Source of the DNA: a virus
IMG/VR virus record: IMGVR_UViG_3300041411_000074
Location: 1 to 64,000 of that record
DNA: 64,000 bases
Strand: one strand, 5' to 3'
Part shown: positions 35,544-60,101 of the stretch, piece by piece
How positions within the stretch are numbered: position 1 is the first letter of the stretch
How the letters are laid out: each line of letters opens with the position of its first letter
Notes under the pieces: model-generated
The model's database searches: none
The model's input: only the letters and a program-made list of their open reading frames with translations
Told to the model about the DNA's origin: nothing
Program-made: the position numbers and the translations under genes

Positions 35544-35579
35544 ATTCTAACCCAACGAAAACAGGCCGTCAAGCGGCCT
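35544..35579 (-). promoter_or_regulatory. Composite terminator hairpin and sigma70 promoter
   Basis: AGGCCG-CTTGA-CGGCCT-GTTTT with TTGACG-17-TAGAAT overlapping the hairpin. Confidence 0.7.
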
Positions 35580-36225
35580 TTTCAATATAAGTAAAGTTTT
35601 CATATTTATCAATTAACGCTTTAGCTACACGTTCATCTGTTTGTTGTGCTGCGAGTACATAGGCTTGCTCCAGTTTAAACGTAAGCCATGCTTGGTGAGC
35701 TTCTTCTGGTGTCTTGAAGTGGCCTAAAACTTTTACCTTCCCTGTGACAACAGAACTGCACGTTGCCACATACTTACCTCTACTCTTGTCGAAACAAACA
35801 CCAATAGGCCACTCACCACGATCTGCTGCCCGCTCAATTATGAATGAGTTAACTCTAGCGTCTACGAAGACGCAAGTATCAGGACCGTAGATCTTATTGC
35901 CCGGAAAGAGGATATCTTTATCCAGCTGTTTACCTTCCCAATCTTGAAGCTCCATCCAAGATTTGAAGTTGCTGAATGTTAGCCATTCTCTCACCACAGA
36001 GCAACCTTTATAACTTGGATACTTTGACTGGTAGTTTTCACTATAACACCTCGTCAACATACTCATCCACCTACCATAGAACGGACATACCCATACAAGC
36101 TTTCGTTTTTTACCGCCTAGGTAACCGATTGTCTTGAACACTTGTACAACATAATCAGCATCGTTAATACCAACACCGCGCACTAGCTTAGTTCTCTGGT
36201 AGCTCTTCAACTTTCTCTTCTCCAT
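35569..36225 (-). CDS. HNH-like (LDKD variant) homing endonuclease with AP2-like C-terminus
   Basis: Close paralog of 30825 (GVGINDADY, QDWEGKQLDKDIL, AFKLDQA/TFKLEQA, RVAKALI). Confidence 0.78.
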   Translation of the reverse strand: MEKRKLKSYQRTKLVRGVGINDADYVVQVFKTIGYLGGKKRKLVWVCPFYGRWMSMLTRCYSENYQSKYPSYKGCSVVREWLTFSNFKSWMELQDWEGKQLDKDILFPGNKIYGPDTCVFVDARVNSFIIERAADRGEWPIGVCFDKSRGKYVATCSSVVTGKVKVLGHFKTPEEAHQAWLTFKLEQAYVLAAQQTDERVAKALIDKYENFTYIEKAA

Positions 36226-37724: not shown

Positions 37725-38540
37725 TCAAACCTTCTCTGTATATCTGTAGTTGTCATAGTCTTCTTGGATCACTTGCCACTTGGCCGCAAGTGGTTCCCGA
37801 AGCTCTTCAAGGAATTCAGGGCTTTCGTAGTAGATTCCAATTTCAGTCTTGAGGTGCTCTATCTTAGCCAACTGCCAAAACCTGTGTGCTTCCATTGGGT
37901 CTGATGCCCTGCCCAGTATAGTGGTTACATCACCCCTCTTTATGCTTGCAACGTAAGTGCCCACGCCGCTTTTCTTCACACCCATACCATGAGCAGACCT
38001 TACAGAAAACTTATCAAGAAACAAATTGTTAATTCTCACAGGTACTGCACGGCAAAATTCGGGTCCATATTCTTTGTTACCGAAGACTAGTAAGTCCTTG
38101 TCAATTCTAAAGTCATCGCTCGGGCAATTGCTGTAGTACCATGCACAATAATTCTGTAAGTTATGCCACAAAGGATTCACATAGACACCTTTAGCACCAT
38201 AGTCTGAGTACGCTTTGTGTCCCGTGTCGTAACACCTACGGATCATGTTTGCCCACCTCTTATATGCTGTGTGTTGGTTTCCATCTTTTCCCGTTGTTGA
38301 GTATGGTCCAACCCCGCGATATCCAATACCAAGAACCGTCTTTGCTAGTGGGTCTTCAACCTTACCCCTGATAGCAGCACTGGCCCTAGTCGTCACAAAT
38401 GAGCCAGTATTAATAAACCTAACCTTGATGTCAAAGCAACCATCAGCAGATATTATTTCATACGGTCCTGATACACCTCTAGCCTCAAAGATGTCGCCGA
38501 CCTTGTACTTTCTAACTTGTCCATCTGGTATTTTACGCAC
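37725..38540 (-). CDS. HNH-like (IDKD variant) homing endonuclease
   Basis: AYKRWANMIRRCY, W.NLQNY..W, RIDKDLLVFGNKEYGPEFC. Confidence 0.75.
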   Translation of the reverse strand: MRKIPDGQVRKYKVGDIFEARGVSGPYEIISADGCFDIKVRFINTGSFVTTRASAAIRGKVEDPLAKTVLGIGYRGVGPYSTTGKDGNQHTAYKRWANMIRRCYDTGHKAYSDYGAKGVYVNPLWHNLQNYCAWYYSNCPSDDFRIDKDLLVFGNKEYGPEFCRAVPVRINNLFLDKFSVRSAHGMGVKKSGVGTYVASIKRGDVTTILGRASDPMEAHRFWQLAKIEHLKTEIGIYYESPEFLEELREPLAAKWQVIQEDYDNYRYTEKV

Positions 38541-41411: not shown

Positions 41412-44166
41412 AATAAAATTTCACTTTAAGCTTTTTATCCAAGTCGTGAAACTCTTCCCAACCTGAGTCTTTATATTTCTCATACCAGAAATTAGAAACA
41501 TACTCTTGAAGGGCTTCACCGTATTCATCAAAAGCTTCTTCATACCAGTCAACCAACAGTTCGCGATTGCTCACGCTTCAACCTCCTCTTCAATAACTTG
41601 CCCAAACACATTAGCCAAAACATATTCCCTACATGCCTTGTCAAACCTGAAACGACACTGTTTAAGCTCTTCGCGGCAAAGTATGTACTCAAGGCTATTA
41701 TCTAGCGAACTTTTCGACTTTGCATAGGCACTTTCTGCCTGCTGGAGACGTTCTAGTAGTTCGGTAAGGTGGTTCATAGGGTTTGTCATTCTGGCGCCCC
41801 TTTCTGCTCTTTATACACCAGATATTTAAGGTATTGAGCAACATCAAATAGCTGCTCATCGTCCTCTAAATCCATATCAGGGATACAGATGTTTGCTGTT
41901 CCAACAGAAGCTGTCATCTCAAAGGCAAGCTTGAGAATGGCTACTTGCATCTCTTGTTCATTCATTTGTGAACTCCAATAATTCGTGTTGTACGAGCCAC
42001 ACATTCCCACTCATCGAAATCTAGGAAATGATACCCTGAAACTTTACTCCACACAAGCAGAGTTTTATCTTTGATAGGCTGATTTGTGTATTCTTCAAAG
42101 TCTTTGATGTTCATTTCACCAATCCTTTTGCAAAGTCCATTGCATCAGAAATGTTAGAGAATGTTTTAGAAACGTCTTTAGAACGTACAGTCCAGACATT
42201 CTCTTTATTCTTGAATGGGAGAATTCCCAAACCGTTCATGGTCATTAGTTGGGTTGAGGCGTTCATTTGGTTTCATCCTTTAAGATTGCAATATCAATTA
42301 GACGAACAAGTTCTGTGCTAGCTGTTTCAATATTACTCTGCTCGTCAAAGAATGTCAGCCACTCATTCGAGAGACTAATAAAAGGTGTGCCGGATGCGAT
42401 TAGGAAAGCTTCCCAACGAATAGAGTTTTGAATCTGTTCAGCAGATGGACGCTTTGCTACTGATACTCGCTTAGTTTTTACTGACATAACATTCTCCCCT
42501 TAGTACTTATGAATCGTTATGGAATTATCTACGGATTTATTTGAATTTAAATTTCTTATAAAACCTGTTGCTTCTTCTAGACTCCAAAATACTGTATTGT
42601 AGTAACCAATTCCATGCATCCCACTCTTAAAATTAAGCCAAAACAACCACAAAAACTTATACTGAGGATAATACTTATTTCCTACTTGTTTTATACGATA
42701 ATTCATAACATTCCCTCTTAAATTCCTGTGATGTATTGCTATCTTTAGATAAATATCTTTGATAGCCGTATTGTCTCTGTTTTGGTACAGGCTGTCAACA
42801 ATTATTTGAAAGCTCTTCCAAAACAAATTCCCAACCATTTCGACGTTGTAGATCAAACTTAACCAATTCGTACATTCGGCAAAGGGTTGTTGTCTTAATC
42901 CTAATCGTTGCACCTTCGCTATCTGTAAAGGTGCTGTAATACTGATTAGGATTTGCCGATACATAGTCCTCAACTGTCAAACCATTACCTGTGAGCTTCA
43001 TGCTGCTTTCTCCTCGTTGTTGACAAACCACTTACACCCATCATTAGGATTCTTGCAAGCTACAGGCATACAAAGATAAGCCTGATAACGAGGCAAAGGA
43101 ATCTGCGTGAAACGTTTACAAGCGGTCTTGCGGACACAATCTGTACCCTCGCACATAACGAGATTTGTCATTGTTCATCCTCATAAGTAACTTCAAACCA
43201 ATATTCATGATTAGGAAACTCAACACCTAGTTTCCTAACCTCTTCCCGTGCTTCCGTTTCATCTGTAATGTGATCACTACAGAATACCACATCCATATTC
43301 TTATCTTCGTAATAGATTTCGTAGATGTTACTCATCCCTCTTCTCCCAAATCAAATTCAAGCGCTTCAATAATCTTCTCAATATCGTCTGTCACAGAATA
43401 ATCGTAGTGCAATTCTTTCTCCAACAAATGTTTAGCATTTTGGAGGAGAGTGATAGTGTCGAGTATTGTTTGTTTACGTTGGGTCATTTTTCAGCCTCCA
43501 TATTAGGACGTGCTGTCCACTGCCACTCCTTACAGTTTTCTTGCCAAGCTTCTTGAAACCAATCGTCTGTATTTTCAAGACATGCATAATACTTCCCATC
43601 ACCTTCATCTTTGTAGAACCATGCTGCACAGACAAGTCCTGTAGACGGTTGATACCATTGTGCTTCTTTTGGGGCTTTGTTCCAATTGATATTCATTTCG
43701 TCTCCTCTTTCAATACAAATTTAGCACTATTATTACACAGAACATGGTTCGGATCAAGAGTTCGTGCAACAAACCTGTCTACACCATCATTCTTTGAACA
43801 AAACTCTTCAGCCTTTGACCACTCTTCAGGGGTGATGCGAATACTAGATGAGTTAACACCTAGAAAGATACCAGACAGAAATACACAGAACCAACCAAAT
43901 AATTCGCCCATTTTAATTGTCCTTTGTACCAAGTTGAAGGAATCTTTTATTGTAGCAAGGGTGCTGCTCTTTTACAAACTGATTGGTAGTGAAGTCTGTG
44001 TATTCAAAATGCCGACCACAACCATAAGATTCATCACTAGGATCAAACTCTTCAGTTGTAACATTGCCACCTTGATCATAATAACTTGTACCAGATGAGT
44101 GGTGCAATACTTCTACGATTGCTTCTTGGTCCTGTGTCTCAAGCCATTTGATAAAGTCTTTAACAT

Positions 44167-44667
44167 TCATTTCTCGTTCTCCAATTCATCAATCTTATCA
44201 CTCAACGAGAGCAACCGACTTTCAATGTACTCTTTCTGAGACAACAAGTCGTTATATTCTTTCACATACTTCTTCAGCACTGCTGCATTACTAACCTCAT
44301 TCCCTTTAGGTTTAGCCCACTTCTTCGTACACTGATACCCTACAAACACAATGCCTTCGTAATCATCTTTAGCATATTCATGCACAAATTCATAGTCATT
44401 CAGGTTGCAGATGAATTCTAAATCAAATCTTCCAACATCAATGTATTTAGAATATTCACGAGCCAACCCTTCGTGTGTGAAAATGTTTGTGTCTTCTTTG
44501 CCATCTTTGAAAGGCCAGTAGTTGTACGTGTCGATTAGGACAATATCACCGTGATCGTCTGTGCGAGCTACGCAGCGACGATCACGACACCAATAAGGGT
44601 CTGATGAAGGGCCGAGGTTAGGTTTCCAACTGTATGAAAAGTAATCACCATCTTTAATTTCTTTCAT
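44167..44667 (-). CDS. Hypothetical protein
   Basis: 166 aa, coupled to denV. Confidence 0.65.
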   Translation of the reverse strand: MKEIKDGDYFSYSWKPNLGPSSDPYWCRDRRCVARTDDHGDIVLIDTYNYWPFKDGKEDTNIFTHEGLAREYSKYIDVGRFDLEFICNLNDYEFVHEYAKDDYEGIVFVGYQCTKKWAKPKGNEVSNAAVLKKYVKEYNDLLSQKEYIESRLLSLSDKIDELENEK

Positions 44668-45059
44668 TTCATCTCTCCCAAACGTTCATTGATACGTTGA
44701 CGACTAATTTCAATAGCTTCTTGTGTAGGAACATAATCTCCAAACCACCAGTTATTGATTCCTTCAATCAAACTGTCTTTTTCAATAGGATTTACTTTAT
44801 ATCCACGACTGACAGCTTCATTGCACAGAGAGTAATACCTCTTGGTGATGAAGTCAAGCTTATCATACAGAAACAAAACATGACCTGTACCCATTGTGTA
44901 AGCTGATGGCTGCTTGATCTTATCTTTGAAATTGTACTTGTTAATCTTACGAGCTTGTGCTTTGCGGACTAGACCAAAGACACGAGTGATCTCATGCAAT
45001 TCTCCGAGCAAGTGCTTATTGTGCAATTCAGATGGTGCGATAACATTGATTCTTGTCAT
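44664..45059 (-). CDS. denV: Pyrimidine-dimer DNA glycosylase / endonuclease V
   Basis: True start MTRINV keeps Thr2, Glu23 and Arg26 at T4 DenV spacing; YTMGTGHVLFLYDKL...RY. Confidence 0.9.
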   Translation of the reverse strand: MTRINVIAPSELHNKHLLGELHEITRVFGLVRKAQARKINKYNFKDKIKQPSAYTMGTGHVLFLYDKLDFITKRYYSLCNEAVSRGYKVNPIEKDSLIEGINNWWFGDYVPTQEAIEISRQRINERLGEMK

Positions 45060-45092
45060 GACAAAGCTTCTGTGTGAGTAGCTGATGTGAGA

Positions 45093-45128
45093 ATCATACA
45101 GACAAAAGAAAAGGCCGTCAAGCGGCCT
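45093..45128 (-). promoter_or_regulatory. Composite terminator hairpin and sigma70 promoter for denV
   Basis: Same 17-bp AGGCCGCTTGACGGCCT plus TTTTCTTTT; TTGACG-17-TATGAT. Confidence 0.7.
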
Positions 45129-45605
45129 GTGGGGTTGGGGTAGCATATAAAATAAATTTATTTTAATGTGCATATCTCTTCGTTCAAGTGTAGGACTGTG
45201 ATACTCCCTCTAAAAAGCTTTACTTCAAACTCTCCGTTGTGACTATTTCTGCTTTCTATTCGTGAACGTAACAATGCCACCAAACGGTCATCGATTGCTT
45301 CTCCAAAGTGCTCTTCTAAGAACTTAGAGATGACCGTTTTTAAATAGAACCTTCTTTTCATCTCCACTTTGTTCATTTAAAATCTTCCTCTGTAATTTTA
45401 GGATATTCCACTTCCATAACACGAGCCTGAATGTCATCACGAAACCTAAACCACTCTTGTTCTGTGCTTGAGTACCAGAAGGAAACGTTGTTAACTCTCT
45501 TTACGTAGTTTAGTTCTGTGAATATACCAAGCTCATCATAAACAGAGACGAAGCATTCAGACCAGAAATCGTTTGGTAGATCTGTTGGTTTTATCCAATT
45601 GTTCA

Positions 45606-46961
45606 TTATTTCTTACTCACAAAGCAAAATTGATTATCACCCACTTCCTCTTTCCATGCATTCAGCATAATAGAGTGGAGTTTGTCTTCAGCACTTGCAC
45701 GACAGATGAAACTGTCATGATAAATCAAAAGGTTTTCTCCTTCTTGAATCATGTCTGATACTACACGGGCTGCAATATTGCTGTCAATATTCATCAGTCG
45801 CATACCGGCATCAGTATAGAAATAATCTTCAATCAAATAATTATGTTTACGAATAGCCTCACAAACGTCTAGCACTTTGGTAGGTTTGATAATCCCAACA
45901 AACTTCTTATCTTGATCTTTCTTTTTAGTGTCTTGGAACAGCTTATTACTTACTGCGCTAACTGCTCCTGTACGATCAATTGCGTTAATAGAGATGAGCA
46001 AAGCTACTTTAGCCAGATTGCGCACAGGATCATATGTAGTCAAGCCATACTTTTCTTTGTGGTCATCAATCATTTCCTGATCAATCTTTACAATCTCTGA
46101 AAGATCAGCACCATATGGCTTGAAGTCTCGACCAATAATATCCCAAACATTGCAGTCATACCCTCCACTTAGATTCAGCCGTTCTAAACAGAGCATCGGG
46201 TGGATTGATGAGTAGTCGAGTTCACAAACAGATTCCCCACCAAATGTCAGATACTTAGAACGATATTTCTCAGGAAGAAGCTGCACGCCGCCACCTGATA
46301 CAAAGAAGCGTCCAGACTCTTGCAGACTATTGCTGTATACACGTTTGTACTCAACTGTTGCAACACGTTTGCCTTTGAATTCAATACTAGCGTCTTTCAA
46401 GCTGTCGTTTAACACTTTAACACCCTCTCTCAGTGTGGTGATACCATTACGTCCACGAAGGGACTTGTTTTCACCTGTCTTTCTGTTACGAATTTCAATC
46501 ATTTCATCAGCCTCAGTGTTAGGCATCAATACTAAATCAATTGTATCCCACAAAGCAAGGTATTTTTCTTTAAATTGTACAAAAGATTTAACTGTTTTGG
46601 TTGGATTACCTTTGGTATCTGTTTCTTTTACAAATCCTTTATAAATGTCAATAAACTGACACTCCTCTAGATGGTAGAGAAGGGCAGTCACAACACGATA
46701 ACCAATGTTTTGATCATTAGAGCTATAGTAATTAGAAGATAATGAGATATAGAAGCCTCCAGCTTTGTTCCTAACTGCCTTAGCACTATTAGTTACAAAC
46801 CAACGGATAGCTTTCTCCCACCTACCATCTGTAACAGTAAGGAGATACTTCACTACACCCTCATACCATACACTTCTGTGATAATACAAGCTACTATCTG
46901 TATTAGTAATCATAGCTTCATACATCTGAAGATCATTCATCTCTCTTAAATCATAAATCAT
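45606..46961 (-). CDS. Divergent family-A / T7-RNAP-like polymerase, no exonuclease domain
   Basis: SGRFF...Q.LP...R, motif A ELDYSSIHP, motif B RNLAKVALL, motif C IYHDSF. Confidence 0.65.
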   Translation of the reverse strand: MIYDLREMNDLQMYEAMITNTDSSLYYHRSVWYEGVVKYLLTVTDGRWEKAIRWFVTNSAKAVRNKAGGFYISLSSNYYSSNDQNIGYRVVTALLYHLEECQFIDIYKGFVKETDTKGNPTKTVKSFVQFKEKYLALWDTIDLVLMPNTEADEMIEIRNRKTGENKSLRGRNGITTLREGVKVLNDSLKDASIEFKGKRVATVEYKRVYSNSLQESGRFFVSGGGVQLLPEKYRSKYLTFGGESVCELDYSSIHPMLCLERLNLSGGYDCNVWDIIGRDFKPYGADLSEIVKIDQEMIDDHKEKYGLTTYDPVRNLAKVALLISINAIDRTGAVSAVSNKLFQDTKKKDQDKKFVGIIKPTKVLDVCEAIRKHNYLIEDYFYTDAGMRLMNIDSNIAARVVSDMIQEGENLLIYHDSFICRASAEDKLHSIMLNAWKEEVGDNQFCFVSKK

Positions 46962-48648
46962 AGACTCGATATCCGGTAATGGTCTTATATAACATTTACA
47001 CCTCTAGGCCACGTAATACAAGGCTCTCAGGAAAAGAAATCATTTATTCGCTCCACTGAATCACAATCTCATCAGTCTTGTAGTCATGAAACTCAAAGTA
47101 TGTCAACCCATCTTTAGGCTTAGGGTCTAACACACTGCCGTTACAAGGAAATCCTTTCTCTTTCAGGAGATGCATGATTGAATAGTTAGGTGGCTGGTTT
47201 AGGATATCATTCATTCCTATACGGATTTCTTTAATCATCGTTTCATACTCTCTTTTGTAGGAAACTCCCAACCATTATCTTCACAAGTCTTCTTCCAAGC
47301 CTTGTCTTTGAAGCTCTCATCTTGCAGACGTTCATAAATGTATAGTGGTAGGTGAATCCAACCATCGTAGGACATGGATTCAAAAAGATCCTTCAAATCA
47401 CCCTTGTTGAAAGCGTATACTGTGTTCTTGTCTTCCATATCAATCTCCTCAATTTGTACAGCCATAATCTCACATTTACCCCTCAAATAGCAAGGAAAAG
47501 AACATGGTATTATTTCAAGTGGTTAGTGGTTAAGTTGAAGGATATTCATGTTGTTTAATCCTCAATCCCATCATCAAAATGTCTACGAATCAAATACTGT
47601 CTCCACTCTTCACTCACTTCATAATCTTTCTTTGTGTGGTTGTCAAAGAATCCAATAGCCCAACCACTGCTACTGATGATACCACCTTCTCGGATAGGCT
47701 TCCCCCAAGATTCCTCAACATTCAATACTTCACCTTGAACATATGTGGATGCAAGATAGCGTGATTTACTGAGGACAACTGAAGAGTATTTCTTTCCTGA
47801 ATGTAAGTGTGTGACGTACCAAGCTTTAAGATTGTTCATTGCAAAACTCCGCTAATCACATCTTCATACTGCTGAATATAATCCCTCATACCCCTTTCAA
47901 ACTGATACGAGGGTTCCAGATTACCACAGTATTCAATAGAACCACCTTCAGGATAGATGAACTTAAGCCGTCCAGCATAACTGTTCTCTACAAAAGCTTT
48001 CTCTTTGTAATGTTCCTCAGCTTGCAAGAAACCCTTCCACCACATTGATTTCTGCATCACTCTTCTCCCTTCCAAACCACTTCATAAACAGGACACACAT
48101 CAGACAGCTTCCTGACATACGTATCATAATCCATAAAATTCCCTACAAGGAAGAACACCCCCTGACTATTCATGACAAGCATCTCCTTCTCTTTGAGCTT
48201 AAGCTTCTGTCCCGTGGATGTGTCGATTATTTTGAATTTCTTTTTCATTTGTTATTCTCCTAGCACTTTCGTGGTATAATTAATAAACTCATCTGACTCA
48301 GCAAGCTTTTTCTCATACAGCTCTGCATACTCTTCTGGAAACATCCAGTCAACCAAATTTTCTGCTGTACTCCTAGACATTTTCCAGCAGAGAAGGCTTA
48401 TACAATACCCTCTAAACTCTTCATAATTCATTTGGCATCAGCCTCGTAAGCATCATAGACGTGTACAAGCATACCGTTCTCAACAAGTTTATAGAAATTC
48501 ATGTTATGCTGAGTGGCTTCGTGTACAGAACCTTTGTTGGTTTCCATAAAGGAACGAGCATCAGAGTCAGTCCAGTGTTTGCCATGCAGTTGAAAGTGGT
48601 TACTTCTGAATTTAATGTTCATGGTGTGTCTCCTTGATTGATGTGCCT

Positions 48649-48677
48649 AGGATAACCTCATCACCAACCCCTGTCAA
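48649..48677 (-). promoter_or_regulatory. Sigma70-like promoter starting the minus-strand block
   Basis: TTGACA-17-TATCCT. Confidence 0.6.
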
Positions 48678-48711
48678 CCCCATTTCGAAAAATCTTCTGA
48701 CAGAGTGTAGA

Positions 48712-48776
48712 TAAATCTACCAAACAAATTTGCTAGACAAATCTACTGAATGAATTTACCAAATGAATTTGCCCAA
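48712..48776. repeat. Five tandem imperfect 13-bp repeats (iteron-like)
   Basis: TAAATCTACCAAA, CAAATTTGCTAGA, CAAATCTACTGAA, TGAATTTACCAAA, TGAATTTGCCCAA. Confidence 0.75.
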
Positions 48777-48824
48777 GGGGTTTCCCTAAATAGATCGCCT
48801 AGAATAATATTTTTAAATCATTTC

Positions 48825-48853
48825 TTGACAGGTGGAGGGATGTGGTGGAGAAT
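48825..48853 (+). promoter_or_regulatory. Sigma70-like promoter starting the replication block
   Basis: TTGACA-17-GAGAAT. Confidence 0.55.
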
Positions 48854-48890
48854 TGGTGTATCTGAAAAGCAACGTAGAGAGGAAAATATA

Positions 48891-49733
48891 ATGGAAATTA
48901 AAGCTTACGCCTGTAAACACTGTGAATCAATCTACAAGACAGCGCAGAAAGCATCTGCCTGTGAAAAGAAATGTGTAGCCCGTATTGCAGAGGAGAAGAC
49001 TGAGGAGGAACGTCAGGCAAACCTTCAAACTCTTGTGAATTACGTTCGTCTGAACGCAGAGTCTATAGAAGATATCTGCCGAATGTCTGAGGAAGTAAGC
49101 CTCAAGTTGTTCCCCAAATCCTCTATCAAGAAGATGAAGCTTCGTGTTTCTTACGCACCACATGCTAGTAACTCTCATTCTGCACCTCTCGGTGAATTTG
49201 AGAATTGGGGACGCAAGGAAGGTAAACCTACGGGATACCCAGCACTTAGAGGTTCAATTACTGTAGTGTACAACAAGGAACCTAAAGGTTTTTCTTCAAG
49301 TACCTTCAATTCTCGTGATGGTATTTGTGGTATTCACACAGGGGATGGTGGCTATCGGTCAGGGGATGGTGGCTATACTGTGGGTTATGACGTAACCCTC
49401 TGGTTGTCTGATTTTCCTAAGATCAAAGCTGCAATTGAGGCTAAACAAAAAGAGATTGATAGTTATGAAATTTTTCGTTCCAAACTTTCTGGCGAATACA
49501 TCGACCAAGTGAGCGCAGATGCTGAGATTAATGCTGCCAAGTCCAATATCGAAGACTTTGAAGATGAAATCCGAAAACTACGTGAGCTGATCGCTTGTGA
49601 GCAAGGTATTATCAAGGACAAAAAAGAAAACTACTCAACCCCTAAACAAGAAATTCTTGACAAAGAGTATGAGAAGACTTCTAATGATTTTGGTCTGAGT
49701 CGTGGTCAGCAATCATTGACAAGCATCTGGTAA
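48891..49733 (+). CDS. Hypothetical protein (N-terminal CxxC, C-terminal coiled coil)
   Basis: Start MEIKAYACKHC behind SD GAGG. Confidence 0.7.
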   Translation: MEIKAYACKHCESIYKTAQKASACEKKCVARIAEEKTEEERQANLQTLVNYVRLNAESIEDICRMSEEVSLKLFPKSSIKKMKLRVSYAPHASNSHSAPLGEFENWGRKEGKPTGYPALRGSITVVYNKEPKGFSSSTFNSRDGICGIHTGDGGYRSGDGGYTVGYDVTLWLSDFPKIKAAIEAKQKEIDSYEIFRSKLSGEYIDQVSADAEINAAKSNIEDFEDEIRKLRELIACEQGIIKDKKENYSTPKQEILDKEYEKTSNDFGLSRGQQSLTSIW

Positions 49734-50878
49734 AACCTCTTGACCCCTCACAAACAATGTGACAAGATACTGTGACTGAAGCGCTTACGAGTAAGCTAAT
49801 GTAAGCAAATAAATTTGACTAATTATTAATGTAATGCTATGCAGCGAAAGCTATTCGAAGAGTGGCGGCTGTGGGAGAGATGGGATGATTTCAGGATATG
49901 TGTTAGCAAGGCAAACTGCTGTAGAAATGCCTAATGGTGCTCGTAGTGAGCTAGGTTATACACTTTTGGATGGTGTTGGCGTATTTCACTCTATTGAAGA
50001 GGTGTACGAAGTGATCAAGGACTTGAACTTACCTCTTGGCTGGGTAGCTATGTCGGTGGACCAACTTCTTCCGGGTTATATGCTTCCAAAGGAGAATAAA
50101 TAATGAGAGTATGTCAGTCAATTCAAGAGCTTCTTGATGAAGAGCTAAGCCAAATGTGGGAAGGTTTGGACTATGAAGGTCTGAATGTGGAAGCTACGAA
50201 AGAGTGGTTTGCAGGGACAGATATTTTTATTCAGATTCTTGATAAACTTAAAGAAGAAAATAAGCACCTATCATGATTGATGAACATATGCAGCAATTAA
50301 TTGAGATGGAAAAATAAATTGAATGGGTGGGAGGAATAAGTGATGAATTGCAAATGGAGACATGTTGACCTAGGCTGGCGGTGTGGTACAATCTACGAAA
50401 TGTGTGATGAAGCTGTTCAGGTTGCGAAATTGTTGAACACACAAGTATCATTTACTTTCAACGGTGTTCGTGTTAATGTCAGCAACCAAAGTGATGTTGA
50501 AGGTGTTTCTTTTCAAGCAATGGAAGCTGTAAAGAATAAAACTGATGCAGTCTTTGGGAAGGGGTGTCACTAATGGCTATGATTAATATCACTAAAGATT
50601 ATCGCAAGTATTCTAGTGAAGAACTTCGGTCACTTGCATATTCAGGCTTGCTTGAGTGTAACGGGTATGATCTTGACTCGTTCCTTGAATACATCTTTCA
50701 GGACATGCACAGCGAACAAGACTTGAAAGAAGCCTTAGAGGAAGGTAAGAAGGAAGCACTTGACAGTGAAATTAGTATTTGTTCAGAATGTGAAGAAGAG
50801 ATTTATGGCTGAACATCCTTGCTATTCTTGAAGCAATTTGATTAATATTCTTTGCAGGGTGTTGGAGGGGAGAAGAGC

Positions 50879-52636
50879 GTGAGTAACAAATACGGCATTG
50901 ATACATCCCATGAACACAAGACAGGATGTCCAAGGTGTATTCGAAAAGGTGAGGACAGGTCCAAGAATAATTTGCACGTCTATGGAGAAGGTAAGGGAGC
51001 TTTCTGTTGGGCGTGTGAGTTTACTATTCCAAGTGATGAGTGGCTTGCCGAACATGGCGAAATTAAAGATGAAGAAGAGGAGTTTGATTACATGGGTTCT
51101 GAGTTTAACCAAGAGATTCACAATAAATTGAAAGAAAACACGTCAGTAGACCCTAAAGGTTGGAGGGGTCTACGCCGTGATACTTGTGCCTACTTTGGTG
51201 TTCGTCACTCCTTCAACACTGAAACAGGTGAGATTGAAAAACAATATTATCCAACTACCCAGAACTACGAGTTGTCGGGTTATAAGGTTAGGCATGAACC
51301 AAAGGATTTTGGGGCAATTGGCATCACTGGTAAACAATGTGAATTATTTGGACAATTCCGGTTTCAGGATGGCAAGGGCAAATATATTCTGTTGGTAGCT
51401 GGCGAAATCGACGCCTTGAGTGCCTACCAGCTCCTTGGTGATTATCAGAAATCCAAAGGCTTTGAACCTATTCCTGTAGTTTCTAGTACTATTGGTGAAG
51501 GAGGAAGTGCCAAACAGGTGCAACAGCAGTATGCATTTCTGGACCAATGGGAGCGAGTCCATATTTGTTATGACAACGATAAAGCTGGCAAGGAGGCTGC
51601 TGAGAAAGTGGCTAAAGTTTTGCCTAAAGGTAAAGCATTTATTGTCAACCTAAGCTTGAAAGATTGTAATGAGTATCTTGTGGCAGGGAAGAGTAAGGAA
51701 TTTATCAAAGCTTTCTATGATGCCAAGGGCTATACCCCGAACGGTATTGTTGGTAGTGGTGAGCTTTACCAAAAAATCCTTGATGAGGTGGAAGCTGACA
51801 AAATCCCTTTTCCACCATTTATGAAAAAGCTCAATGAAATGACTGCTGGTGGTCTGAGCTTGGGGAAGCTGTGTAACATCGGCGCCGCCACAGGATTAGG
51901 GAAGACAGTTTATGTGGACTCAATTATTTACCATCTTATTTTCAACAGTCCATACCGTGTTGGTGTGGTGAGTATGGAACTTAACAGTGGTCAGTATGGT
52001 CTATCTATGTTGTCTCGACATGTTGGTCGGAAGATTGCCAACATTCAGGATAAGGAAGAGCGTAGTAACTATTTGAAGAGTGATTACGTCCAAGAGAAGC
52101 AAAAGGAGTTGTTCTTTAAAGCGGACGGCTCACACCGTTGGCACTTGGTCGATGATCGGGATGGTTCAATCGAGGATATGAAATCTCTCGTTGAACAGTT
52201 GGTTATTAGCTGCGAGTGTAAGGTAATTGTACTTGATCCATTGCAAGACATTCTGGATGGTATGAGCAACGAAGATCAAGCTTTGTTCCTGAAGTGGCAG
52301 AAAGGTTTGATTAAGAGCCACAACATGAGTTTCATTAACATCAATCATGTCCGAAAAAGTGGCAATTCTTCGCAATCAAACTCTAACGGCGGGATGATTA
52401 CCGAAGAGGATTTTGCTGGCTCAAGTACAATTATGAAATCTGCTGCACTGAATATTCTCCTAGTGAGAGACAAGATGAATGAAGACCCTGTGATCCGCAA
52501 CACTACCCGAGCTTTTCTTAGTAAGAATCGGGATAATGGTATTACAGGCCCAGCAGGTTCATATTACTACAATAATGAAACCCACCAACTTCAAGATTTT
52601 GATGAATGGTTAGAGGAAAATCCACAGGAGTTTTAA
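50879..52636 (+). CDS. T7-type primase-helicase
   Basis: CPRC...CWAC zinc ribbon, TOPRIM (AGEIDA, YDND.AG, KDCNE), Walker A AATGLGKT, VLDP, HVRK, SKNR..G.TG. Confidence 0.95.
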   Translation: MSNKYGIDTSHEHKTGCPRCIRKGEDRSKNNLHVYGEGKGAFCWACEFTIPSDEWLAEHGEIKDEEEEFDYMGSEFNQEIHNKLKENTSVDPKGWRGLRRDTCAYFGVRHSFNTETGEIEKQYYPTTQNYELSGYKVRHEPKDFGAIGITGKQCELFGQFRFQDGKGKYILLVAGEIDALSAYQLLGDYQKSKGFEPIPVVSSTIGEGGSAKQVQQQYAFLDQWERVHICYDNDKAGKEAAEKVAKVLPKGKAFIVNLSLKDCNEYLVAGKSKEFIKAFYDAKGYTPNGIVGSGELYQKILDEVEADKIPFPPFMKKLNEMTAGGLSLGKLCNIGAATGLGKTVYVDSIIYHLIFNSPYRVGVVSMELNSGQYGLSMLSRHVGRKIANIQDKEERSNYLKSDYVQEKQKELFFKADGSHRWHLVDDRDGSIEDMKSLVEQLVISCECKVIVLDPLQDILDGMSNEDQALFLKWQKGLIKSHNMSFININHVRKSGNSSQSNSNGGMITEEDFAGSSTIMKSAALNILLVRDKMNEDPVIRNTTRAFLSKNRDNGITGPAGSYYYNNETHQLQDFDEWLEENPQEF

Positions 52637-53719
52637 ATGGCAATTAAGTATTTAGAAATTGGCCAAGTATTAGAAAATAAACAAGGTGAGAAGTATGTAA
52701 TTGAAGGTCTTGACCACTGTAAATCAGTTAAGGTTAGATTCCTCTCTAATAATTCTGTAAAATACACTACTGCAAATTATGCTTATCGTGGCATCGTCCG
52801 CATGGAAAGGGTTCTTGTCGGTGAACAATATTTGGATAAGAATGGGGAAACAATTACTGTAGTTGGCAAGACTAAACAAGATGATATTACAATCCAATGG
52901 GATGATGGCGAAACGCGCTCGACAAATGCCTATAGGATTGAGAATAGGCTTGTGATTCGGACCAATGACAATAAGCATGTTAATCCAACCGTAAAAGTTG
53001 GGCAAATATACGTTAATCGCCAAGGTTCAGAAATCAAGGTTCTTGAATACGAAAATTCAACCAAGATTTTAGTGGAGATTGGCGAAAGAAAGTACCAGCA
53101 ATATGTACACGCAGGGAATCTGATATCACTAAATGTACATGACAAGTATGCACCATCTGTTGCAGGTAAAGGTATTTTTGGAGATGCAGAAGTTGATGTC
53201 AAATCTCAAGTCTATACTTCTTGGGCTGGGATGTTAAAACGCTGCTATACTTTTTATGATGATAAACCAAGGGCAAGAATCAACTATGAAGGCTGTGAAG
53301 TCAGGGAAGATTTTCTGTATCTTCCAGATTACATGGCTTGGTATGAGAAACAAATTGTTCAGCCAAAGTGGCATCTTGACAAAGATCTTTTGGTTCCCGG
53401 TAATAAGATCTACAGCCCCGATACGTGTGTGTTTTTACCAAGAGCTTTGAATACGTTCTTAACAGTCAGGGGTAATGAACGCGGACCATATCCAATCGGC
53501 GTTACTTACCATGAACGTCTAGGGAAATATGAGGCTTGCTGTAATCGGGATGGTAAGAGTGTTTATCTTGGGCTTTATTTAAATCCTGAAGATGCCTTTG
53601 AAGCTTACAAGAAAGAGAAGGAATCTTACGCGAAAGATCTTGCAAAGCGTTGGGAAGGGGTGATAGACTCTCGGGCTTGTGAAGCACTGATGAATTATAG
53701 GGTTTTAATTACCGATTAG
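52637..53719 (+). CDS. HNH-like (LDKD variant) homing endonuclease with N-terminal repeats and AP2-like C-terminus
   Basis: Three G..Y....G repeats; WAGMLKRCY, HLDKDLLVPGNKIYSPDTC, YLGLY..PEDAF. Sits between helicase and polymerase. Confidence 0.8.
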   Translation: MAIKYLEIGQVLENKQGEKYVIEGLDHCKSVKVRFLSNNSVKYTTANYAYRGIVRMERVLVGEQYLDKNGETITVVGKTKQDDITIQWDDGETRSTNAYRIENRLVIRTNDNKHVNPTVKVGQIYVNRQGSEIKVLEYENSTKILVEIGERKYQQYVHAGNLISLNVHDKYAPSVAGKGIFGDAEVDVKSQVYTSWAGMLKRCYTFYDDKPRARINYEGCEVREDFLYLPDYMAWYEKQIVQPKWHLDKDLLVPGNKIYSPDTCVFLPRALNTFLTVRGNERGPYPIGVTYHERLGKYEACCNRDGKSVYLGLYLNPEDAFEAYKKEKESYAKDLAKRWEGVIDSRACEALMNYRVLITD

Positions 53720-53728
53720 GAGTAACAA

Positions 53729-55840
53729 ATGCTAGGCGAAAATGAGATTATTCTGGACATTGAGGCAGATGGATTTATTTTTGAATCCACGAAGGTTTGG
53801 ACTGTATGTGCAACAAACATCCAAAGTGGTGAAAAGATTAAGGTAAATCCCTTTAAAGATGAATCTGCCAAGAGTCAGCTAATCTCATTCATCTTTAAAA
53901 AACCTAATCCAACTATTGGCTTTCACTTCGGTCTGGGCTATGACATGTTCGTTCTTCAGAACTTGTTGGATATTAAGTTCACAGTTGGTAAAGACACAAT
54001 TGAAGGTCAACCTGTTCAGTTTGTCGATACACTTTATTTGAGTATGTTCCTCAATCCTGATCGTATCGGACATAGTGTTGAAGCCTTTGGTGAAGTTCTC
54101 GGATTGCCTAAAATTGATTGGCGAGAAAAAGCAATTGAACTGGGACTAATTGAACGTAACGCACCAAAAGGTGCTGAGTTTATGCAGTGGCATCCAGAAA
54201 TGGACGTGTACTGTGAACGTGACGTTGATGTAAACGTAATGTTGTATCAATATCTTCAAAAGGAATGGCAGGAGGTTTACGGGAAACCTTTCAGCATTAC
54301 TGATGCTTACAAATGTGGACAGAAGTCTTTCTATTTAATGTCTTGTCAGGAACTTACAGGATTTAAGTTTGATGTTGAAGGTGGTATTAAGCTTAAGGAA
54401 CGGATTGGTGTAATGATGGAAGAGATCCGGGCAGAGGTAGAGCCTAAACTTCCTCCTCGTGCATTGAAGAAGTCCGAAGAAAAGTATTACAGTATGCCCG
54501 CTAAGCCATGGAAAAAATCAGGAGACTTCTCGTCGTCTTGGGAAAAGTTTGTAGAAAAGCACAATGGTGTTTTAGATACCAACACAGGTTTGTGGGACTT
54601 CTATGGTGAAAAGTATCCAGTAGTGGCAGGAGCTATGCTGAATATTAAGTTGCCAATGGAGATGGCTAACCAAGATCAGATGAAAGATTGGTTTCTTGAA
54701 CAGGGTTGGAAACCTTCGCTGTGGAATTTCCAACGTGGGCCTGATGGTAAGCCAATGCGAGATCCTAAGACACGCCAACTTATCCAAACAAGTCCTAAGA
54801 TTCAGGAACAGGGTAAGATTTGCCCCAATCTCATGAAGTTGGAAGGTGATATTGTTAAACAAGTTGTGAAGTGGCTGAGCTTGCGTAACCGACAATCTGT
54901 ATTGGAGGGCTGGCTTACAAATGATCGCCTGCAAATGGATGGGCGTATTGGTGCAGGGCGTACAGGTATTGCTGCGACACATCGCCAAAAGCATCGTACT
55001 TGCGTAAACGTCCCGAAGGCTTCTGAGAAGGTTTTGCTTGGCAAAGAGTTCCGTTCTCTGTGGATTTCGGGAGATGGGATGCTTATTGCTGCCGGGGATG
55101 CCGCTGCGTTAGAGGGACGAGTTCAGGGGCACTATTGCTATAAATATGATGATGGAGCAACGGCTGAAGAATTGTTGAAAGGCGATGTGCACAGTAAGAA
55201 TGCGTTTGCTTTCTTTGGACATGAATCTGAAATCCAACAATTTGATTTGCACAGCCCTGACTTTAATAAAGAACATCCTAAATTCAAGCCTTTCCGAGAT
55301 AAGAGTAAAAACGGATATTATGCCTGTATGTATGGCTGTGCTGGCCCTAAATTAGCCAGTACATTAGGCTTGCCAGTTAAGATGGGAAATGATAAACTTG
55401 AGGCATTCTGGGATGCTAATCCAGCCACTAAGGCACTCAAAGAGAACCTAGAAAAGTATTGGACAAGTACAGGACGTGAGAAGTATCTTCCTGCGATTGA
55501 TGGCCGTATGCTTTGCACTCGCAAGAAGTCTGCACTGCTTAATACAATTTTCCAAAGTTGTGGTGGTATTTCAATGGATTATGCGCTATGCTTTATGGAC
55601 GCTTGGCTTGGTGGTTTGAAGTGGAAAGATCGTAAACCTTACTACATCTACAAAGGTCATGTAGTGATGCGTGTTTGCTATCAACACGATGAGGTAGAAT
55701 TTGAGTGTGAGGAAGAAATTGCAGAGGAAATTTCTCGAATGATTGAAAAAGCTATTGAAAAAGCTGGACTCTATTTGAAACTTAAAGTACCATTAGCGGG
55801 CGAAGGCAAGACGGGAAAATCGTGGTGCGAAGTGCATTGA
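53729..55840 (+). CDS. Family A DNA polymerase with 3'-5' exonuclease
   Basis: ExoI DIEAD, ExoII YD, ExoIII YCERD; motif A DAAALEGR, motif B RDKSKNGYYACMYG, motif C HDE. Confidence 0.95.
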   Translation: MLGENEIILDIEADGFIFESTKVWTVCATNIQSGEKIKVNPFKDESAKSQLISFIFKKPNPTIGFHFGLGYDMFVLQNLLDIKFTVGKDTIEGQPVQFVDTLYLSMFLNPDRIGHSVEAFGEVLGLPKIDWREKAIELGLIERNAPKGAEFMQWHPEMDVYCERDVDVNVMLYQYLQKEWQEVYGKPFSITDAYKCGQKSFYLMSCQELTGFKFDVEGGIKLKERIGVMMEEIRAEVEPKLPPRALKKSEEKYYSMPAKPWKKSGDFSSSWEKFVEKHNGVLDTNTGLWDFYGEKYPVVAGAMLNIKLPMEMANQDQMKDWFLEQGWKPSLWNFQRGPDGKPMRDPKTRQLIQTSPKIQEQGKICPNLMKLEGDIVKQVVKWLSLRNRQSVLEGWLTNDRLQMDGRIGAGRTGIAATHRQKHRTCVNVPKASEKVLLGKEFRSLWISGDGMLIAAGDAAALEGRVQGHYCYKYDDGATAEELLKGDVHSKNAFAFFGHESEIQQFDLHSPDFNKEHPKFKPFRDKSKNGYYACMYGCAGPKLASTLGLPVKMGNDKLEAFWDANPATKALKENLEKYWTSTGREKYLPAIDGRMLCTRKKSALLNTIFQSCGGISMDYALCFMDAWLGGLKWKDRKPYYIYKGHVVMRVCYQHDEVEFECEEEIAEEISRMIEKAIEKAGLYLKLKVPLAGEGKTGKSWCEVH

Positions 55841-57187: not shown

Positions 57188-57886
57188 ATGACTAACAAAA
57201 CAGAAGTAATTGTACGTGACTTACCTAAATCGGGCACTCTGGAGACAGCTAACGTTTATATCAAGAATGCTGTAGTTTACTATGCAGCAGTACATGAACC
57301 AAAGCTTAAATATCAATCTGTAGACAAAGAGTTTAGTGCAACAGTCTTCGTAGATGAAGAAGCCAAGGATCGTTTGCTGGACGAAGTAATGGTTAACAAA
57401 TCCTTCTCCCAAGTAGGCATCACCAAAACTAGCAAGCCACCTCGGAAGATCAAGTTTGCCTTGTCTTCGCAAGTTGAAGAAGGTAAAGCTAATTATGATC
57501 TGGTAGATGGTTTGTGGGGATTTAACATTGCCAAGCCTGAGTTTAGTAAGAAGGGTTTGCCGATGAACGTCAACGTGATTGATGCAGAAGGTAATGCGTT
57601 CACTGAGAACGTGGGCAATGGCTCGGTAGTTAACCTGAAGTTGTTCGGATATAAGAATCAGGACGGTCAACTCACTGTTACATTGGACACTGTTCAAGTA
57701 GTAGAGCACGTAGCTTATGAAGGCAAAGGTTCGTCTGATTCGGTTGATGATGATGTCTTGGGTGTTAGTTATAAGGTGAAGAAGACTGAGGCTAAGCCTG
57801 CTGAAGAGGAAGTTCCAGCACCGAAGGTCAAGGCTGCTCCGCAACCTGAACCAGAGGACGAAGAACTGGGTGACTTGCCTTTTTGA
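57188..57886 (+). CDS. Single-stranded DNA-binding protein (T7 gp2.5-like)
   Basis: VGNGSVVN, TVQVVEHVAY, acidic tail ending DLPF; between polymerase and exonuclease. Confidence 0.8.
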   Translation: MTNKTEVIVRDLPKSGTLETANVYIKNAVVYYAAVHEPKLKYQSVDKEFSATVFVDEEAKDRLLDEVMVNKSFSQVGITKTSKPPRKIKFALSSQVEEGKANYDLVDGLWGFNIAKPEFSKKGLPMNVNVIDAEGNAFTENVGNGSVVNLKLFGYKNQDGQLTVTLDTVQVVEHVAYEGKGSSDSVDDDVLGVSYKVKKTEAKPAEEEVPAPKVKAAPQPEPEDEELGDLPF

Positions 57887-58243: not shown

Positions 58244-58555
58244 ACCAACGGAGTATTATTATGGGTGTCGAGTATTCAGCACGGATTCTTGTTGGACTTC
58301 CCCACGAAGATCTTGAAGAATTCTTACAGGATGTAGAAGATCATTATGATGTGGGGTTGTATGTTTGCAGTCCGTATTACGATGCAAGCTATGGAGATTC
58401 CTTGTTTGGTGTTCTTGTAGAGCACTGTGATGATTTTAGTTATACAGAAATTGATGAGTTTAATTGGTCAGAGAAAGTCTGTAAAGCACATCAAGAGTTT
58501 ACAAAGATCACTGGTAAGAAGGGTGTGCTGTTCCTCTCTACTTACGGGAGTTGAA

Positions 58556-59554
58556 ATGACAAAACTAACATCAATAATTGACCTAGATTACGTAAAGTAC
58601 GCTTCTGCATCAGTTGGTGAAAAACGTTCTATTGTTGTCACACACAAAGCTTCGGGACGTGAAAAGGAGTTTTCCACTAGAACTGAATTCTACGGACGGG
58701 ATAAAGCAAAATCCGGTGGATGGCTTGGGGAACTAAACGCTAAACGTGAAAGTCCATTTACTGTAGATGAGTTTGATATTATTGATCGTCAAGTTGCTGA
58801 GCCAGTTGATCACGTATTGCAAATTGCAAAGACTCAAGTTGAAGGTGATCTAAAAAGACTTGGTACAAATAAATACAAAGCTTTCTTGGGCAAGGGTGAT
58901 AGCTTTCGTGTTGAACTGTCTACACTGAAGAAGTATAAAGATAATCGAAAAGATATGCTTCGCCCCTTGCACATGGATGCAGTTACAGAGTATCTTGAAC
59001 GTAAGTTTAAAGCTGAGATTGTCACAGGGATTGAGGCTGATGATCGTTGTGTAATTGAAGCTTACAATAATCCTAATGCTGTGATTCAGGGGTTAGATAA
59101 AGATTACTATGGACAACCCGTCAAGTTCTTTAACGTCAATCGACCAGAAGAAGGTATTCAAGACTGCAATCAGTTTGGTAGCTTGTGGTTAGATGATAAA
59201 GGAGATGTTCGTGGCATTGGACGTATGCACCTTTATTGGCAAGTAGGTAGTAATGATACATCCGATAACTATGCTGCAAACTGCTTCTCAGACATTAAAT
59301 GGGCAGGAAAATCAGCCTATAAAAGCTTAGTAGAAGCTAAGACAGACAGTGAGGCATGGGAGAAGCTTAAAGAGGTTTTCCAGCATCTTTACCCCGAAGA
59401 TAAGACTGTTTTAGGCTGGAGAAATGACTCTATCAACATCACTTGGGATTATGTTTTGAATGAATGCTTCATGATGGCTAGGATGTTGAAGGTTGAAGGT
59501 GAAAATATTAATGCTTATGATGTGATGGATAAATTGGGTGTAAGTTATGCTTAA
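58556..59554 (+). CDS. 5'-3' exonuclease (T7 gp6/RNase H-like)
   Basis: IDLD, FR...YK.NR, IEADD, DKD, DTSDN acidic clusters; start MTKLT. Confidence 0.88.
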   Translation: MTKLTSIIDLDYVKYASASVGEKRSIVVTHKASGREKEFSTRTEFYGRDKAKSGGWLGELNAKRESPFTVDEFDIIDRQVAEPVDHVLQIAKTQVEGDLKRLGTNKYKAFLGKGDSFRVELSTLKKYKDNRKDMLRPLHMDAVTEYLERKFKAEIVTGIEADDRCVIEAYNNPNAVIQGLDKDYYGQPVKFFNVNRPEEGIQDCNQFGSLWLDDKGDVRGIGRMHLYWQVGSNDTSDNYAANCFSDIKWAGKSAYKSLVEAKTDSEAWEKLKEVFQHLYPEDKTVLGWRNDSINITWDYVLNECFMMARMLKVEGENINAYDVMDKLGVSYA

Positions 59555-60101
59555 GGAGCCTTGGCTAACCCCAGAAGGGATGAAGATATGGAAAACTGAA
59601 TCCCAATACTGGAACTGGTTGCGTGGCTCACTTCGAAGATTATGGGGTGATTATCCTCTACGCAAAGAGTGGAAAGCTAGACAACTACGTTTAATTACAC
59701 CAGAAGAGAAAGCTAGTAAACTGTTTCATCCATCAACAAAGAATCTTGGACAATGTTTTTATTGTAAGCAATGGTTTGCAGGGAGTAAACTTGAGTGTGA
59801 CCATAAAACACCATCTGACGGCTGTAGATCAAAAGAGACAGCAGAATCATTCTTGTGGTATTGTGGAGGTGGTGTAGGAGATGAGTGGGTCTTGAGCTGT
59901 AAGCCCTGTCACAAAGTTAAGACTCATTCTGAACGTCAAGGGCTGACAATGGATGAGAGTAGAATAGACAAAGAAATCATTGCTATCATGAACGCTAAAA
60001 CAGATAGACAGTGGCTAGAACAACGTAGTATAGTGCCAGCAAGCAATGCTAAGAAAAGACGGCGGCAAATTGAGGAGGAAATGAAGAATGAAACTGTTTA
60101 A
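59547..60101 (+). CDS. HNH-type endonuclease
   Basis: CFYC...ECDH...LSCKPCH..KT. Confidence 0.7.
   Translation: MLKEPWLTPEGMKIWKTESQYWNWLRGSLRRLWGDYPLRKEWKARQLRLITPEEKASKLFHPSTKNLGQCFYCKQWFAGSKLECDHKTPSDGCRSKETAESFLWYCGGGVGDEWVLSCKPCHKVKTHSERQGLTMDESRIDKEIIAIMNAKTDRQWLEQRSIVPASNAKKRRRQIEEEMKNETV

Follow-up and report, generated by a model that had tools for sequence, protein, structure and literature searches.

The polymerase gene and its motifs

The stretch of viral DNA analysed here (the window) covers the initial 64 kb of the 89,364-bp virus record IMGVR_UViG_3300041411_000074, which is rated 100 % complete. On its minus strand, the window carries a gene for a 451-residue polymerase that very probably belongs to the divPolA2 family. 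The gene is present in a single copy in the 89,364-bp genome and is encoded outside the replication module, in addition to the regular replicative DNA polymerase (DNAP). The features of the gene and its leader are as follows:

45606..46961, minus strand: whole gene of the divPolA2-type polymerase; open reading frame (ORF) with ATG start, 451 residues, stop codon at 45606-45608
46512..46961, minus strand: N-terminal domain, residues 1-150, winged-helix-like
45609..46505, minus strand: catalytic core, residues ~153-451, family-A palm and fingers
46260..46316, minus strand: S-G-R-x8-Q-x2-P-x3-R, residues 216-234; pattern match, counterpart of the PolA "TGR"
46197..46223, minus strand: motif A, ELDYSSIHP, residues 247-255, with the catalytic D249 (D249 in 95/95 aligned sequences, H254 in 93/95)
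45981..46022, minus strand: motif B (O-helix), RNLAKVALLISINA, residues 314-327, with R314, K318, L322 and N326-A327
45705..45725, minus strand: motif C, IYHDSFI, residues 413-419, with H415-D416-S417 at a β-hairpin turn (H415 and D416 in 95/95, S417 in 80/95)
46962..47043, minus strand: leader of 82 nt, characterised by sequence, consensus scan and fold test

An earlier note, made from the letters alone, had described a 451-residue ORF with the strings GR, ELDYSSIHP, RNLAK and IYHDSF and with a motif B that lacks the usual YG. All of these strings are present, and because they are conserved across an alignment of 95 family members, they are not chance occurrences. The GR corresponds to residues 217-218; G217, R218 and R234 are found in 95/95 sequences each and Q227 in 88/95, and the motif of residues 216-234 corresponds to the PolA "TGR" motif (motif 2). 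RNLAK corresponds to residues 314-318 and is followed by N326-A327 where Y-G is expected. Within motif B, R314 is conserved in 91 of the 95 sequences, K318 in 95 and N326 in 92, and the K+4 position (L322) is Leu in 68 and Met in 24. The residues invariant throughout the alignment are G217, R218, R234, D249, Y283, K318, H415 and D416, and at least 90 % conservation is reached by G109, N185, Y220, Q227, H254, R314, N326, L389, D393, S394, M432 and C446 (D393 in 92 and S394 in 87 sequences). A Cys directly precedes motif A (C-ELDYSSIHP, residues 246-255). The start codon of the gene is backed by an MIY(D/E)L N-terminus that is kept in relatives.

No Shine-Dalgarno sequence of the AGGAG type is present in the 82-nt leader, in line with the earlier note, and sequence inspection, consensus scan and folding revealed no clear promoter, terminator or significant structure in it. 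An imperfect palindrome previously proposed at 47008-47024 had to be rejected: the fold of a 101-nt leader segment was no better than chance (z of +0.61, with 146 of 200 shuffled sequences folding equally well or better), and the repeat scan reported no inverted repeat at these positions. The proposal that 46960-47040 serves as a template site is likewise unsupported by the fold test.

Fold and domain organisation

The AlphaFold2 model calculated with the 95-sequence alignment (pLDDT 95.9, pTM 0.92) has the right-hand palm and fingers fold of family-A DNAPs. A Foldseek search of the Protein Data Bank (PDB) returned 151 matches at E<=1e-3, the top ones being Aquifex, Bacillus and Taq Pol I, the apicoplast polymerase and Pol theta, and the core fold is common to the RNA polymerases (RNAPs) of T7, mitochondria and N4 as well. 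In the model, D249 lies at the end of the strand 243-250 and H415-D416 lies at the turn of the hairpin 412-414/417-421; this region superposes on PolA palms and, by the strand assignments of the model, has the layout of the canonical palm. The predicted structure thus contains a right-hand palm, and the claim about the fold, which had been tied to this check, therefore stands. Fold searches with the 451-residue model recognised neither a thumb nor a 3'-5' exonuclease. The protein accordingly agrees with its first description as a second, minimal family-A/T7-RNAP-like polymerase core that has no exonuclease domain and is encoded apart from the replicative PolA.

The region N-terminal to the core is composed of helices 49-64, 76-79 and 88-100, a strand at 69-72, a hairpin (104-108/110-114) and a second hairpin (120-130). 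Compared with the H-S-H-H-S-S topology and with known winged helices, the region looks like a winged helix, with weak scores. This domain of about 150 residues, fused to the core, is probably a winged helix, and it would probably bind DNA.

Membership in the divPolA2 family

Sequence searches against named libraries gave little. The 451-residue protein had no match in Pfam even at E<=10 and none in NCBIfam; PF00476 was matched by 0 of the 95 family members at E<=1; and no sequence match to PF00940 was found in Pfam, for the protein or the 95 members, or among PDB sequences. Searches of the PDB by sequence and by profile gave nothing relevant and no polymerase, the ESM Atlas gave unnamed clusters only, and a Megablast search with positions 44000-49000 against 50,697 phage records gave no matches. 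The sole named library match was to phrog_4756, "unknown function" (E 4.5e-74). The family itself is large: a word-indexed search returned 54 homologues, and profile-level counts reached 2673 cluster representatives (50 % identity) at E<=1e-3, 452 at 1e-10 and 67 at 1e-30. By tblastn, 121 phage records match, every one below 60 % identity; their hosts are Vibrio (95), Aeromonas (14), Pseudoalteromonas (5), Shewanella (5), Pseudomonas (1) and Pseudaeromonas (1). The Vibrio records include ICP1, whose ORF100 is a homologue on which the ICP1 literature yielded nothing relevant. The homologue in Pseudomonas phage vB_PsaM_M1, an 89-kb member of the Ounavirinae, bears the annotation "DNA polymerase".

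The assignment to divPolA2 is based on two matches: (i) the 95-sequence profile aligned by hhalign with AUR84708, the divPolA2 representative from Vibrio phage 1.063.O (MG592441.1, 25469-26761), over 358 columns with a probability of 99.85 % and E 1.2e-30, the pairwise BLASTP match being 21 % identity over 256 residues (E 5e-5); and (ii) the model matched the barbavirus protein Barba31A (435 residues) in the BFVD structure database with E 6.9e-24. We therefore regard it as very likely that the protein is a divPolA2 member, with palm and fingers, intact motifs, no 3'-5' exonuclease or recognisable thumb, and an N-terminal domain of about 150 residues that is probably a winged helix. The protein is thus a new member of a published family.

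The divPolA2 family was described through computer analysis by Yutin, Tolstoy, Mutz, Wolf, Krupovic and Koonin (2024, Virol J 21:200, PMC11348598). According to the main text of that paper, divPolA2 was initially noticed in 110 barbaviruses (80-85 kb), which also encode PolB; some genomes hold 2-3 paralogues; the surroundings of the gene vary; the protein has an active palm and is without an exonuclease or a homologous thumb; and the authors proposed a role as repair DNAP or as RNAP. The window protein agrees with the family as described there in its length (~430-450 residues), in its N-terminal globular domain followed by palm and fingers, in the lack of an exonuclease, in being extra to a regular DNAP in a variable neighbourhood, and in its fold matches to DNAPs and to mitochondrial and N4 RNAPs. 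It differs from the barbavirus proteins in that its partner is a regular PolA, whereas theirs, in the same text, is PolB. It also differs from AUR84708 in motif C, which is F-D-E in AUR84708 but H-D-S here and in 80 of 95 relatives. A full-text literature search for "divPolA2" returned only the PMC11348598 paper and its preprint, with no experimental follow-up. In the main text of the paper, "winged helix", integrases and bacterial genomes have 0 occurrences each. The winged-helix likeness, the family-wide replacements at the sugar-selecting positions and the sister clade on islands of bacterial chromosomes, described below, are new here.

A pair of paralogues was also noticed in the present set. 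The 85.6-kb IMGVR_UViG_3300032080_000003 has two divPolA2 genes (L075 and L105) about 28 kb apart, whose products are 39 % and 31 % identical to the window protein and fall into different sub-clades of the tree; this pair matches the 2-3 paralogues in the main text of Yutin et al.

Active site compared with the phage's own PolA

The complete PolA reported by the earlier note is indeed encoded at 53729-55840: it matches phrog_17 (E 2.4e-91), PF00476 is found in its close relatives, and it has the full motif set, D457-x4-E462, R523-x3-K527-x7-Y535-G536 and H653-D-E655. The corresponding motifs of the 451-residue protein are D249-x4-H254, R314-x3-K318-x7-N326-A327 and H415-D-S417. The spacing within the motifs is identical in the two proteins, and motifs A and B are 65 residues apart in the 451-residue protein versus 66 in PolA. 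The residues that select deoxyribonucleoside triphosphates (dNTPs) are absent from the smaller protein: E462, Y535-G536 and E655 of PolA are replaced by H254, N326-A327 and S417. In PolA and T7 RNAP enzymology, the Glu of motif A is a steric gate against the 2'-OH, the Tyr of motif B senses the sugar, and motif C takes the form HDS in RNAPs. The steric-gate position is Gly in T7 RNAP and His in the 451-residue protein, and in place of the conserved Tyr-Gly of motif B, whose Tyr (Y639 in T7) reads the 2'-OH, N326-A327 stand at K+8/K+9. Judged from the sequence, the catalytic machinery is kept and the putative dNTP-specific residues are replaced. All the positions at which PolA excludes or reads the 2'-OH carry other residues family-wide, and for this reason the enzyme may use ribonucleotides (rNTPs). 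The predicted active site argues against an ordinary DNAP and falls short of proof for rNTP use.

The distance from the known polymerases is large in both directions. Compared with the family-A DNAPs (Klenow, Bst and Taq Pol I, T7 gp5, Pol nu and Pol theta), the family lacks not only PF00476, the exonuclease and a recognisable thumb but also a significant profile match: hhalign of the family profile against the window PolA alone gave E 0.35 and against a low-diversity profile of 12 PolA sequences gave E 0.24, neither being significant, the latter pairing the motif A segments of the two; and Glu is changed to His, Y-G to N-A and HDE to HDS. Compared with the single-subunit RNAPs (T7, mitochondrial, and N4 vRNAP and RNAPII), the protein is about half the size or less, has no homologous N-terminal promoter-binding domain, has Asn for the conserved motif B Tyr, and comes from a genome in which no promoter family was found.

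These comparisons bear on the proposal that the protein is an accessory DNAP for repair, gap filling or lesion bypass, which would work on phage DNA that ultraviolet light or host nucleases have damaged and would, in the manner of Pol theta or Pol nu, lack proofreading. We consider such a role unlikely. Three features of the phage's own PolA, namely the steric-gate Glu, the motif B Y-G and the HDE Glu, have other residues in their place throughout the family; processive gap filling would have no recognisable thumb to rely on; a neighbouring gene of the T4 endonuclease V (DenV) type is found in just 2 of 64 related viral loci; and a repair role leaves unexplained the position beside integrases in bacterial islands and the repeats downstream of the gene, which are described in the following section.

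Bacterial homologues on integrase-bearing islands

A pattern scan based on a 32-sequence alignment and covering one genome per prokaryote species gave 61 loci, in which motif A is conserved by construction of the pattern. A full ORF matching the family hidden Markov model was present in 58 of the 61 (E 1e-24 to 1e-148). Among 59 bacterial homologues, R234 is kept in 59, K318 and D416 in 58 each, H415 in 57, S417 in 56 and N326 in 54, and 40 of the 59 alignments reach the N-terminal domain.

BLASTP clustering of 692 neighbouring ORFs revealed a tyrosine integrase or a serine resolvase in 44 of 58 loci. A tyrosine integrase is the commonest neighbour (39 loci, with a P4-type integrase in 3 more), and a serine resolvase comes next (12 loci); Pfam scans of 150 and 133 neighbours confirmed the integrases and resolvases, and beyond these the clustering gave no conserved partner next to the homologues. 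The typical order is an integrase, 1-4 ORFs and the homologue, which is on the strand of the integrase. Some layouts are satellite-like: int-x-AlpA-homologue in L010, and int-AlpA-x-x-homologue-small terminase-portal-protease-capsid-connector in L011. In both, the homologue stands at the position where satellites keep their primase or replicase. An AAA_25 ATPase lies directly upstream of the homologue in L017 and L035, and an RNase H directly adjoins it in L058 and L062.

The DNA downstream of the homologues is also distinctive. The 300 nt that follow them contain a median of 254 non-coding nt, versus 72 for other ORFs. Tandem repeats occur there in 21 of 54 loci, compared with 66 of 429 other ORFs of >=150 residues (Fisher p 1e-4), and in 15 of 39 versus 32 of 168 when only ORFs followed by >=150 non-coding nt are compared (p 0.018); these counts leave out L007-L009, which look like phage contigs in metagenome-assembled genomes (MAGs), and include loci that are related and hence not independent, with low thresholds in the repeat finder TRF. 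No enrichment of tandem repeats was found upstream of the homologues.

The cargo of the islands includes Hachiman (HamA), type I/II/III restriction-modification, Cas9, ABC-3C and reverse transcriptase; the islands look like carriers of defence genes. A link between this polymerase family and integrase-bearing islands with defence cargo was not found in print, either in literature searches or in the main text of PMC11348598. Individual arrangements include the integrase/homologue pair beside Cas9-Cas1-Cas2 in L013 (Desulfovibrio sp. UBA6079) and L019 (Humidesulfovibrio sp.), Hachiman in L021, type I restriction-modification in L053, L055 and L057, and reverse transcriptase in L059.

This cargo is part of the case for a defence or counter-defence enzyme, which would synthesise nucleic acid other than a copy of the genome, such as a template-independent or self-templated polymer, a decoy or a signal, and would be island cargo in bacteria and an early gene in phages. 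The occurrence of paralogues and the place of the phage gene among small early genes of unknown function are compatible with such an enzyme. However, 7 proteins tested with PADLOC gave no match; the homologue adjoins the integrase on the same strand instead of lying amid the variable cargo; and the intact O-helix and minor-groove motifs (R314, K318, Q227 and R234) would point to templated synthesis. A defence role is therefore improbable in our judgement.

The closest parallels to the islands are functional analogues and not homologues, namely the pipolins with piPolB and the elements with P4 alpha or the pri-rep of phage-inducible chromosomal islands (PICIs). In these, a polymerase or primase gene likewise adjoins an integrase in small integrative elements with defence cargo, and P4 alpha links its catalytic module with a winged helix that binds the origin. 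They differ in that their folds are unrelated (family B in one case, archaeo-eukaryotic primase or DnaG-type in the others), and replication of the PolA-like islands, like any primer-independent synthesis by their polymerases, is putative.

Phage and bacterial clades

A FastTree phylogeny, rooted at the midpoint, was computed for 112 proteins, 58 viral rows (the window included) and 54 bacterial ones, after ORFs of <350 residues and exact duplicates had been dropped. The tree separates a group of 51 bacterial and 3 viral rows from a group of 55 viral rows and 3 bacterial MAG rows (Shimodaira-Hasegawa-like support of 94). The viral/bacterial label changes 7 times on the tree; with shuffled labels the mean was 37.6 changes, and none of 500 shuffles gave so few. 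The window protein stands firmly in the phage group, and its nearest relatives are IMG/VR proteins that are 58 % identical to it.

Three sequences from "viral" IMG/VR contigs (L117, L127 and L129) fall into the bacterial-island clade, where L117 is sister to the satellite-like L011; L007-L009, from Bacteroidota MAG contigs, are within the phage clade and lie amid small phage-like ORFs. The former probably represent satellites or prophages that had been classed as viral, and the latter are probably phage contigs binned into MAGs.

Position in the phage genome and proposed function

The polymerase gene is approximately the eighth in a leftward block of small genes that diverges from the replication block. 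This leftward early block would be headed, as far as the sequence indicates, by the following promoter:

48649..48677, minus strand: sigma-70-like promoter, TTGACA-17-TATCCT; consensus scan, 10/12 matches

Between this promoter and the start of the gene, the consensus scan detected one weak terminator-like site (48122-48093) and otherwise no promoter-like or terminator-like site. The gene lies 7 kb from, and on the opposite strand to, a complete T7-type replisome, which consists of a primase-helicase (50852-52636), an HNH insert, PolA (53729-55840), a gp2.5-like single-stranded DNA-binding protein (57188-57886) and an exonuclease (58427-59554). Because of this position in an early leftward block away from a complete replisome, the 451-residue protein is not the replicative polymerase. 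The relatives L082 and L083 also hold the gene in the early block; the genes that directly adjoin it vary among relatives.

Another candidate function is that of a very small single-subunit RNAP, transcribing middle or late phage genes or island genes from its own promoters in the manner of T7 RNAP or N4 RNAPII. The genome gives little sign of such promoters: no 10-mer occurs in more than 4 of the 58 intergenic regions of the 89-kb genome, the top ones resembling ribosome-binding sites, in a test that would miss a few hairpin or degenerate promoters; the direct repeats in the window form no promoter family and are mostly paralogues of HNH genes; and the divergent control region has sigma-70-like promoters. 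Nor does the protein itself fit well, given that the conserved motif B Tyr is Asn and that 451 residues leave no room for the promoter-specificity loop, the intercalating hairpin and the N-terminal domain of the known enzymes. Known single-subunit RNAPs have 883 residues or more. We consider a transcriptase of this kind quite unlikely.

The reading that we favour, tentatively and with less than even confidence, is that the protein is an enzyme directed to a DNA site, where it starts replication, possibly with rNTPs. The N-terminal domain would bring the catalytic core to a specific DNA site, and there the enzyme would make the first short strand, possibly of RNA, that allows the replisome to start, in the manner of T7 RNAP and mitochondrial RNAP at their origins. 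To our knowledge, T7-type replisomes have no initiator protein, and T7 primes at its origin with its RNAP. The genome logic for an initiator is that a T7-type replisome is present with no other RNAP in the 40 larger window ORFs that were scanned. Substrate choice, initiation de novo and the transfer of a "replicase" role from islands to phages are all inferred, and the last of these is an extrapolation because the islands and the phages form sister clades.

Several observations weigh against an initiator. The island evidence comes from the sister clade, so roles may differ between the two; its repeat enrichment is modest and includes related loci that are not independent (L055/L057), and the adjacency of RNase H and of AAA_25 is seen in just 2 loci each. 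On the phage side, no non-coding DNA or repeats lie 3' of the gene, the next gene starting at its stop codon; the gene neighbourhood is variable in relatives; the phage already encodes a gp4-type primase; and the 2-3 paralogues of some phages, as given in the main text of Yutin et al., would suit arms-race or transcription roles better than initiation at a single origin. As for the protein, fold searches score DNAPs slightly above RNAPs, and the literature search for "divPolA2" gave no biochemical data for any member.

Of the functions suggested in the earlier note (a single-subunit RNAP, an origin primase or an atypical nucleotidyltransferase), the transcriptase with T7-style promoters is disfavoured, and the homologues on bacterial islands speak indirectly for initiation or priming.

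A wider and more speculative view, which we hold possible but doubtful, is that divPolA2-type enzymes are winged-helix-guided, chain-starting derivatives of PolA. They would represent a third origin of "self-priming" replicases beside the prim-pols and piPolB, and would define an unnamed class of self-replicating integrative islands of Proteobacteria, Desulfobacterota and Ignavibacteria, the PolA-based equivalent of pipolins with defence cargo. Virulent, RNAP-less phages with a T7-type replisome would have borrowed the enzymes for origin firing, possibly with RNA primers. One conversion of family-A polymerases into RNAPs is known, that of the T7/mitochondrial lineage; as a second offshoot, divPolA2 is much smaller and is changed at exactly the sugar-selecting residues. 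Should the enzyme start chains or use rNTPs, no smaller PolA-type enzyme with this ability would be known, and it would be a compact candidate tool; it would also explain the start of T7-like replisomes in phages that have no RNAP. The island link would contribute a novel type of self-replicating element. If it is merely an accessory repair DNAP, the finding is ordinary.

Other features of the window

Two genes downstream of the polymerase gene lies a gene for a DenV-like pyrimidine-dimer glycosylase of the T4 endonuclease V type (44664-45173, minus strand; phrog_1183, E 4e-39). The match to phrog_1183 begins at residue 39 of the ORF, so the true start of the glycosylase is probably further downstream. 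A conserved linkage between the two genes was considered and rejected, as it recurs in only the 2 of 64 viral loci mentioned above.

The intergenic region 48623-48890 contains five head-to-tail 13-bp units at 48708-48772, which are alternating near-palindromes (TAGAyAAATCTAC / CAAAyrAATTTGC). This array, the sole iteron-like one noticed near the polymerase gene, is located between the leftward sigma-70-like promoter (48677-48649) and a rightward one (48825-48853), at the point where gene orientation and GC skew flip, and is a candidate operator array or replication origin on the sequence pattern. The ORF called at 48750-49733 (plus strand) starts within the array, and its likely true start is the ATG at 48891, which follows GAGAGGA. 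From this ATG, the gene encodes about 280 residues whose N-terminus resembles a C4 zinc ribbon (MEIKAYACKHCES...CEKKC). The product weakly matches phrog_12523, and the gene is the first of the replication-side block.

The load of HNH and homing endonuclease genes is unusually high, at least 10 of the 40 larger ORFs scanned. Those matching phrog_953 are at 30825-31478, 34218-34901, 35569-36225, 37725-38540 and 52637-53719; further ones are at 4430-5398, 10730-11557, 27501-28499, 59547-60101 and 61768-62430. One HNH gene lies between the primase-helicase and PolA, and another adjoins the large terminase. At 16315-17894 (plus strand), a gene for a PhoH-like ATPase (phrog_170) is followed by one for a ClpP-like protease (phrog_1827); the same pair is found in vB_PsaM_M1, which supports kinship with this phage, classified in the Ounavirinae.

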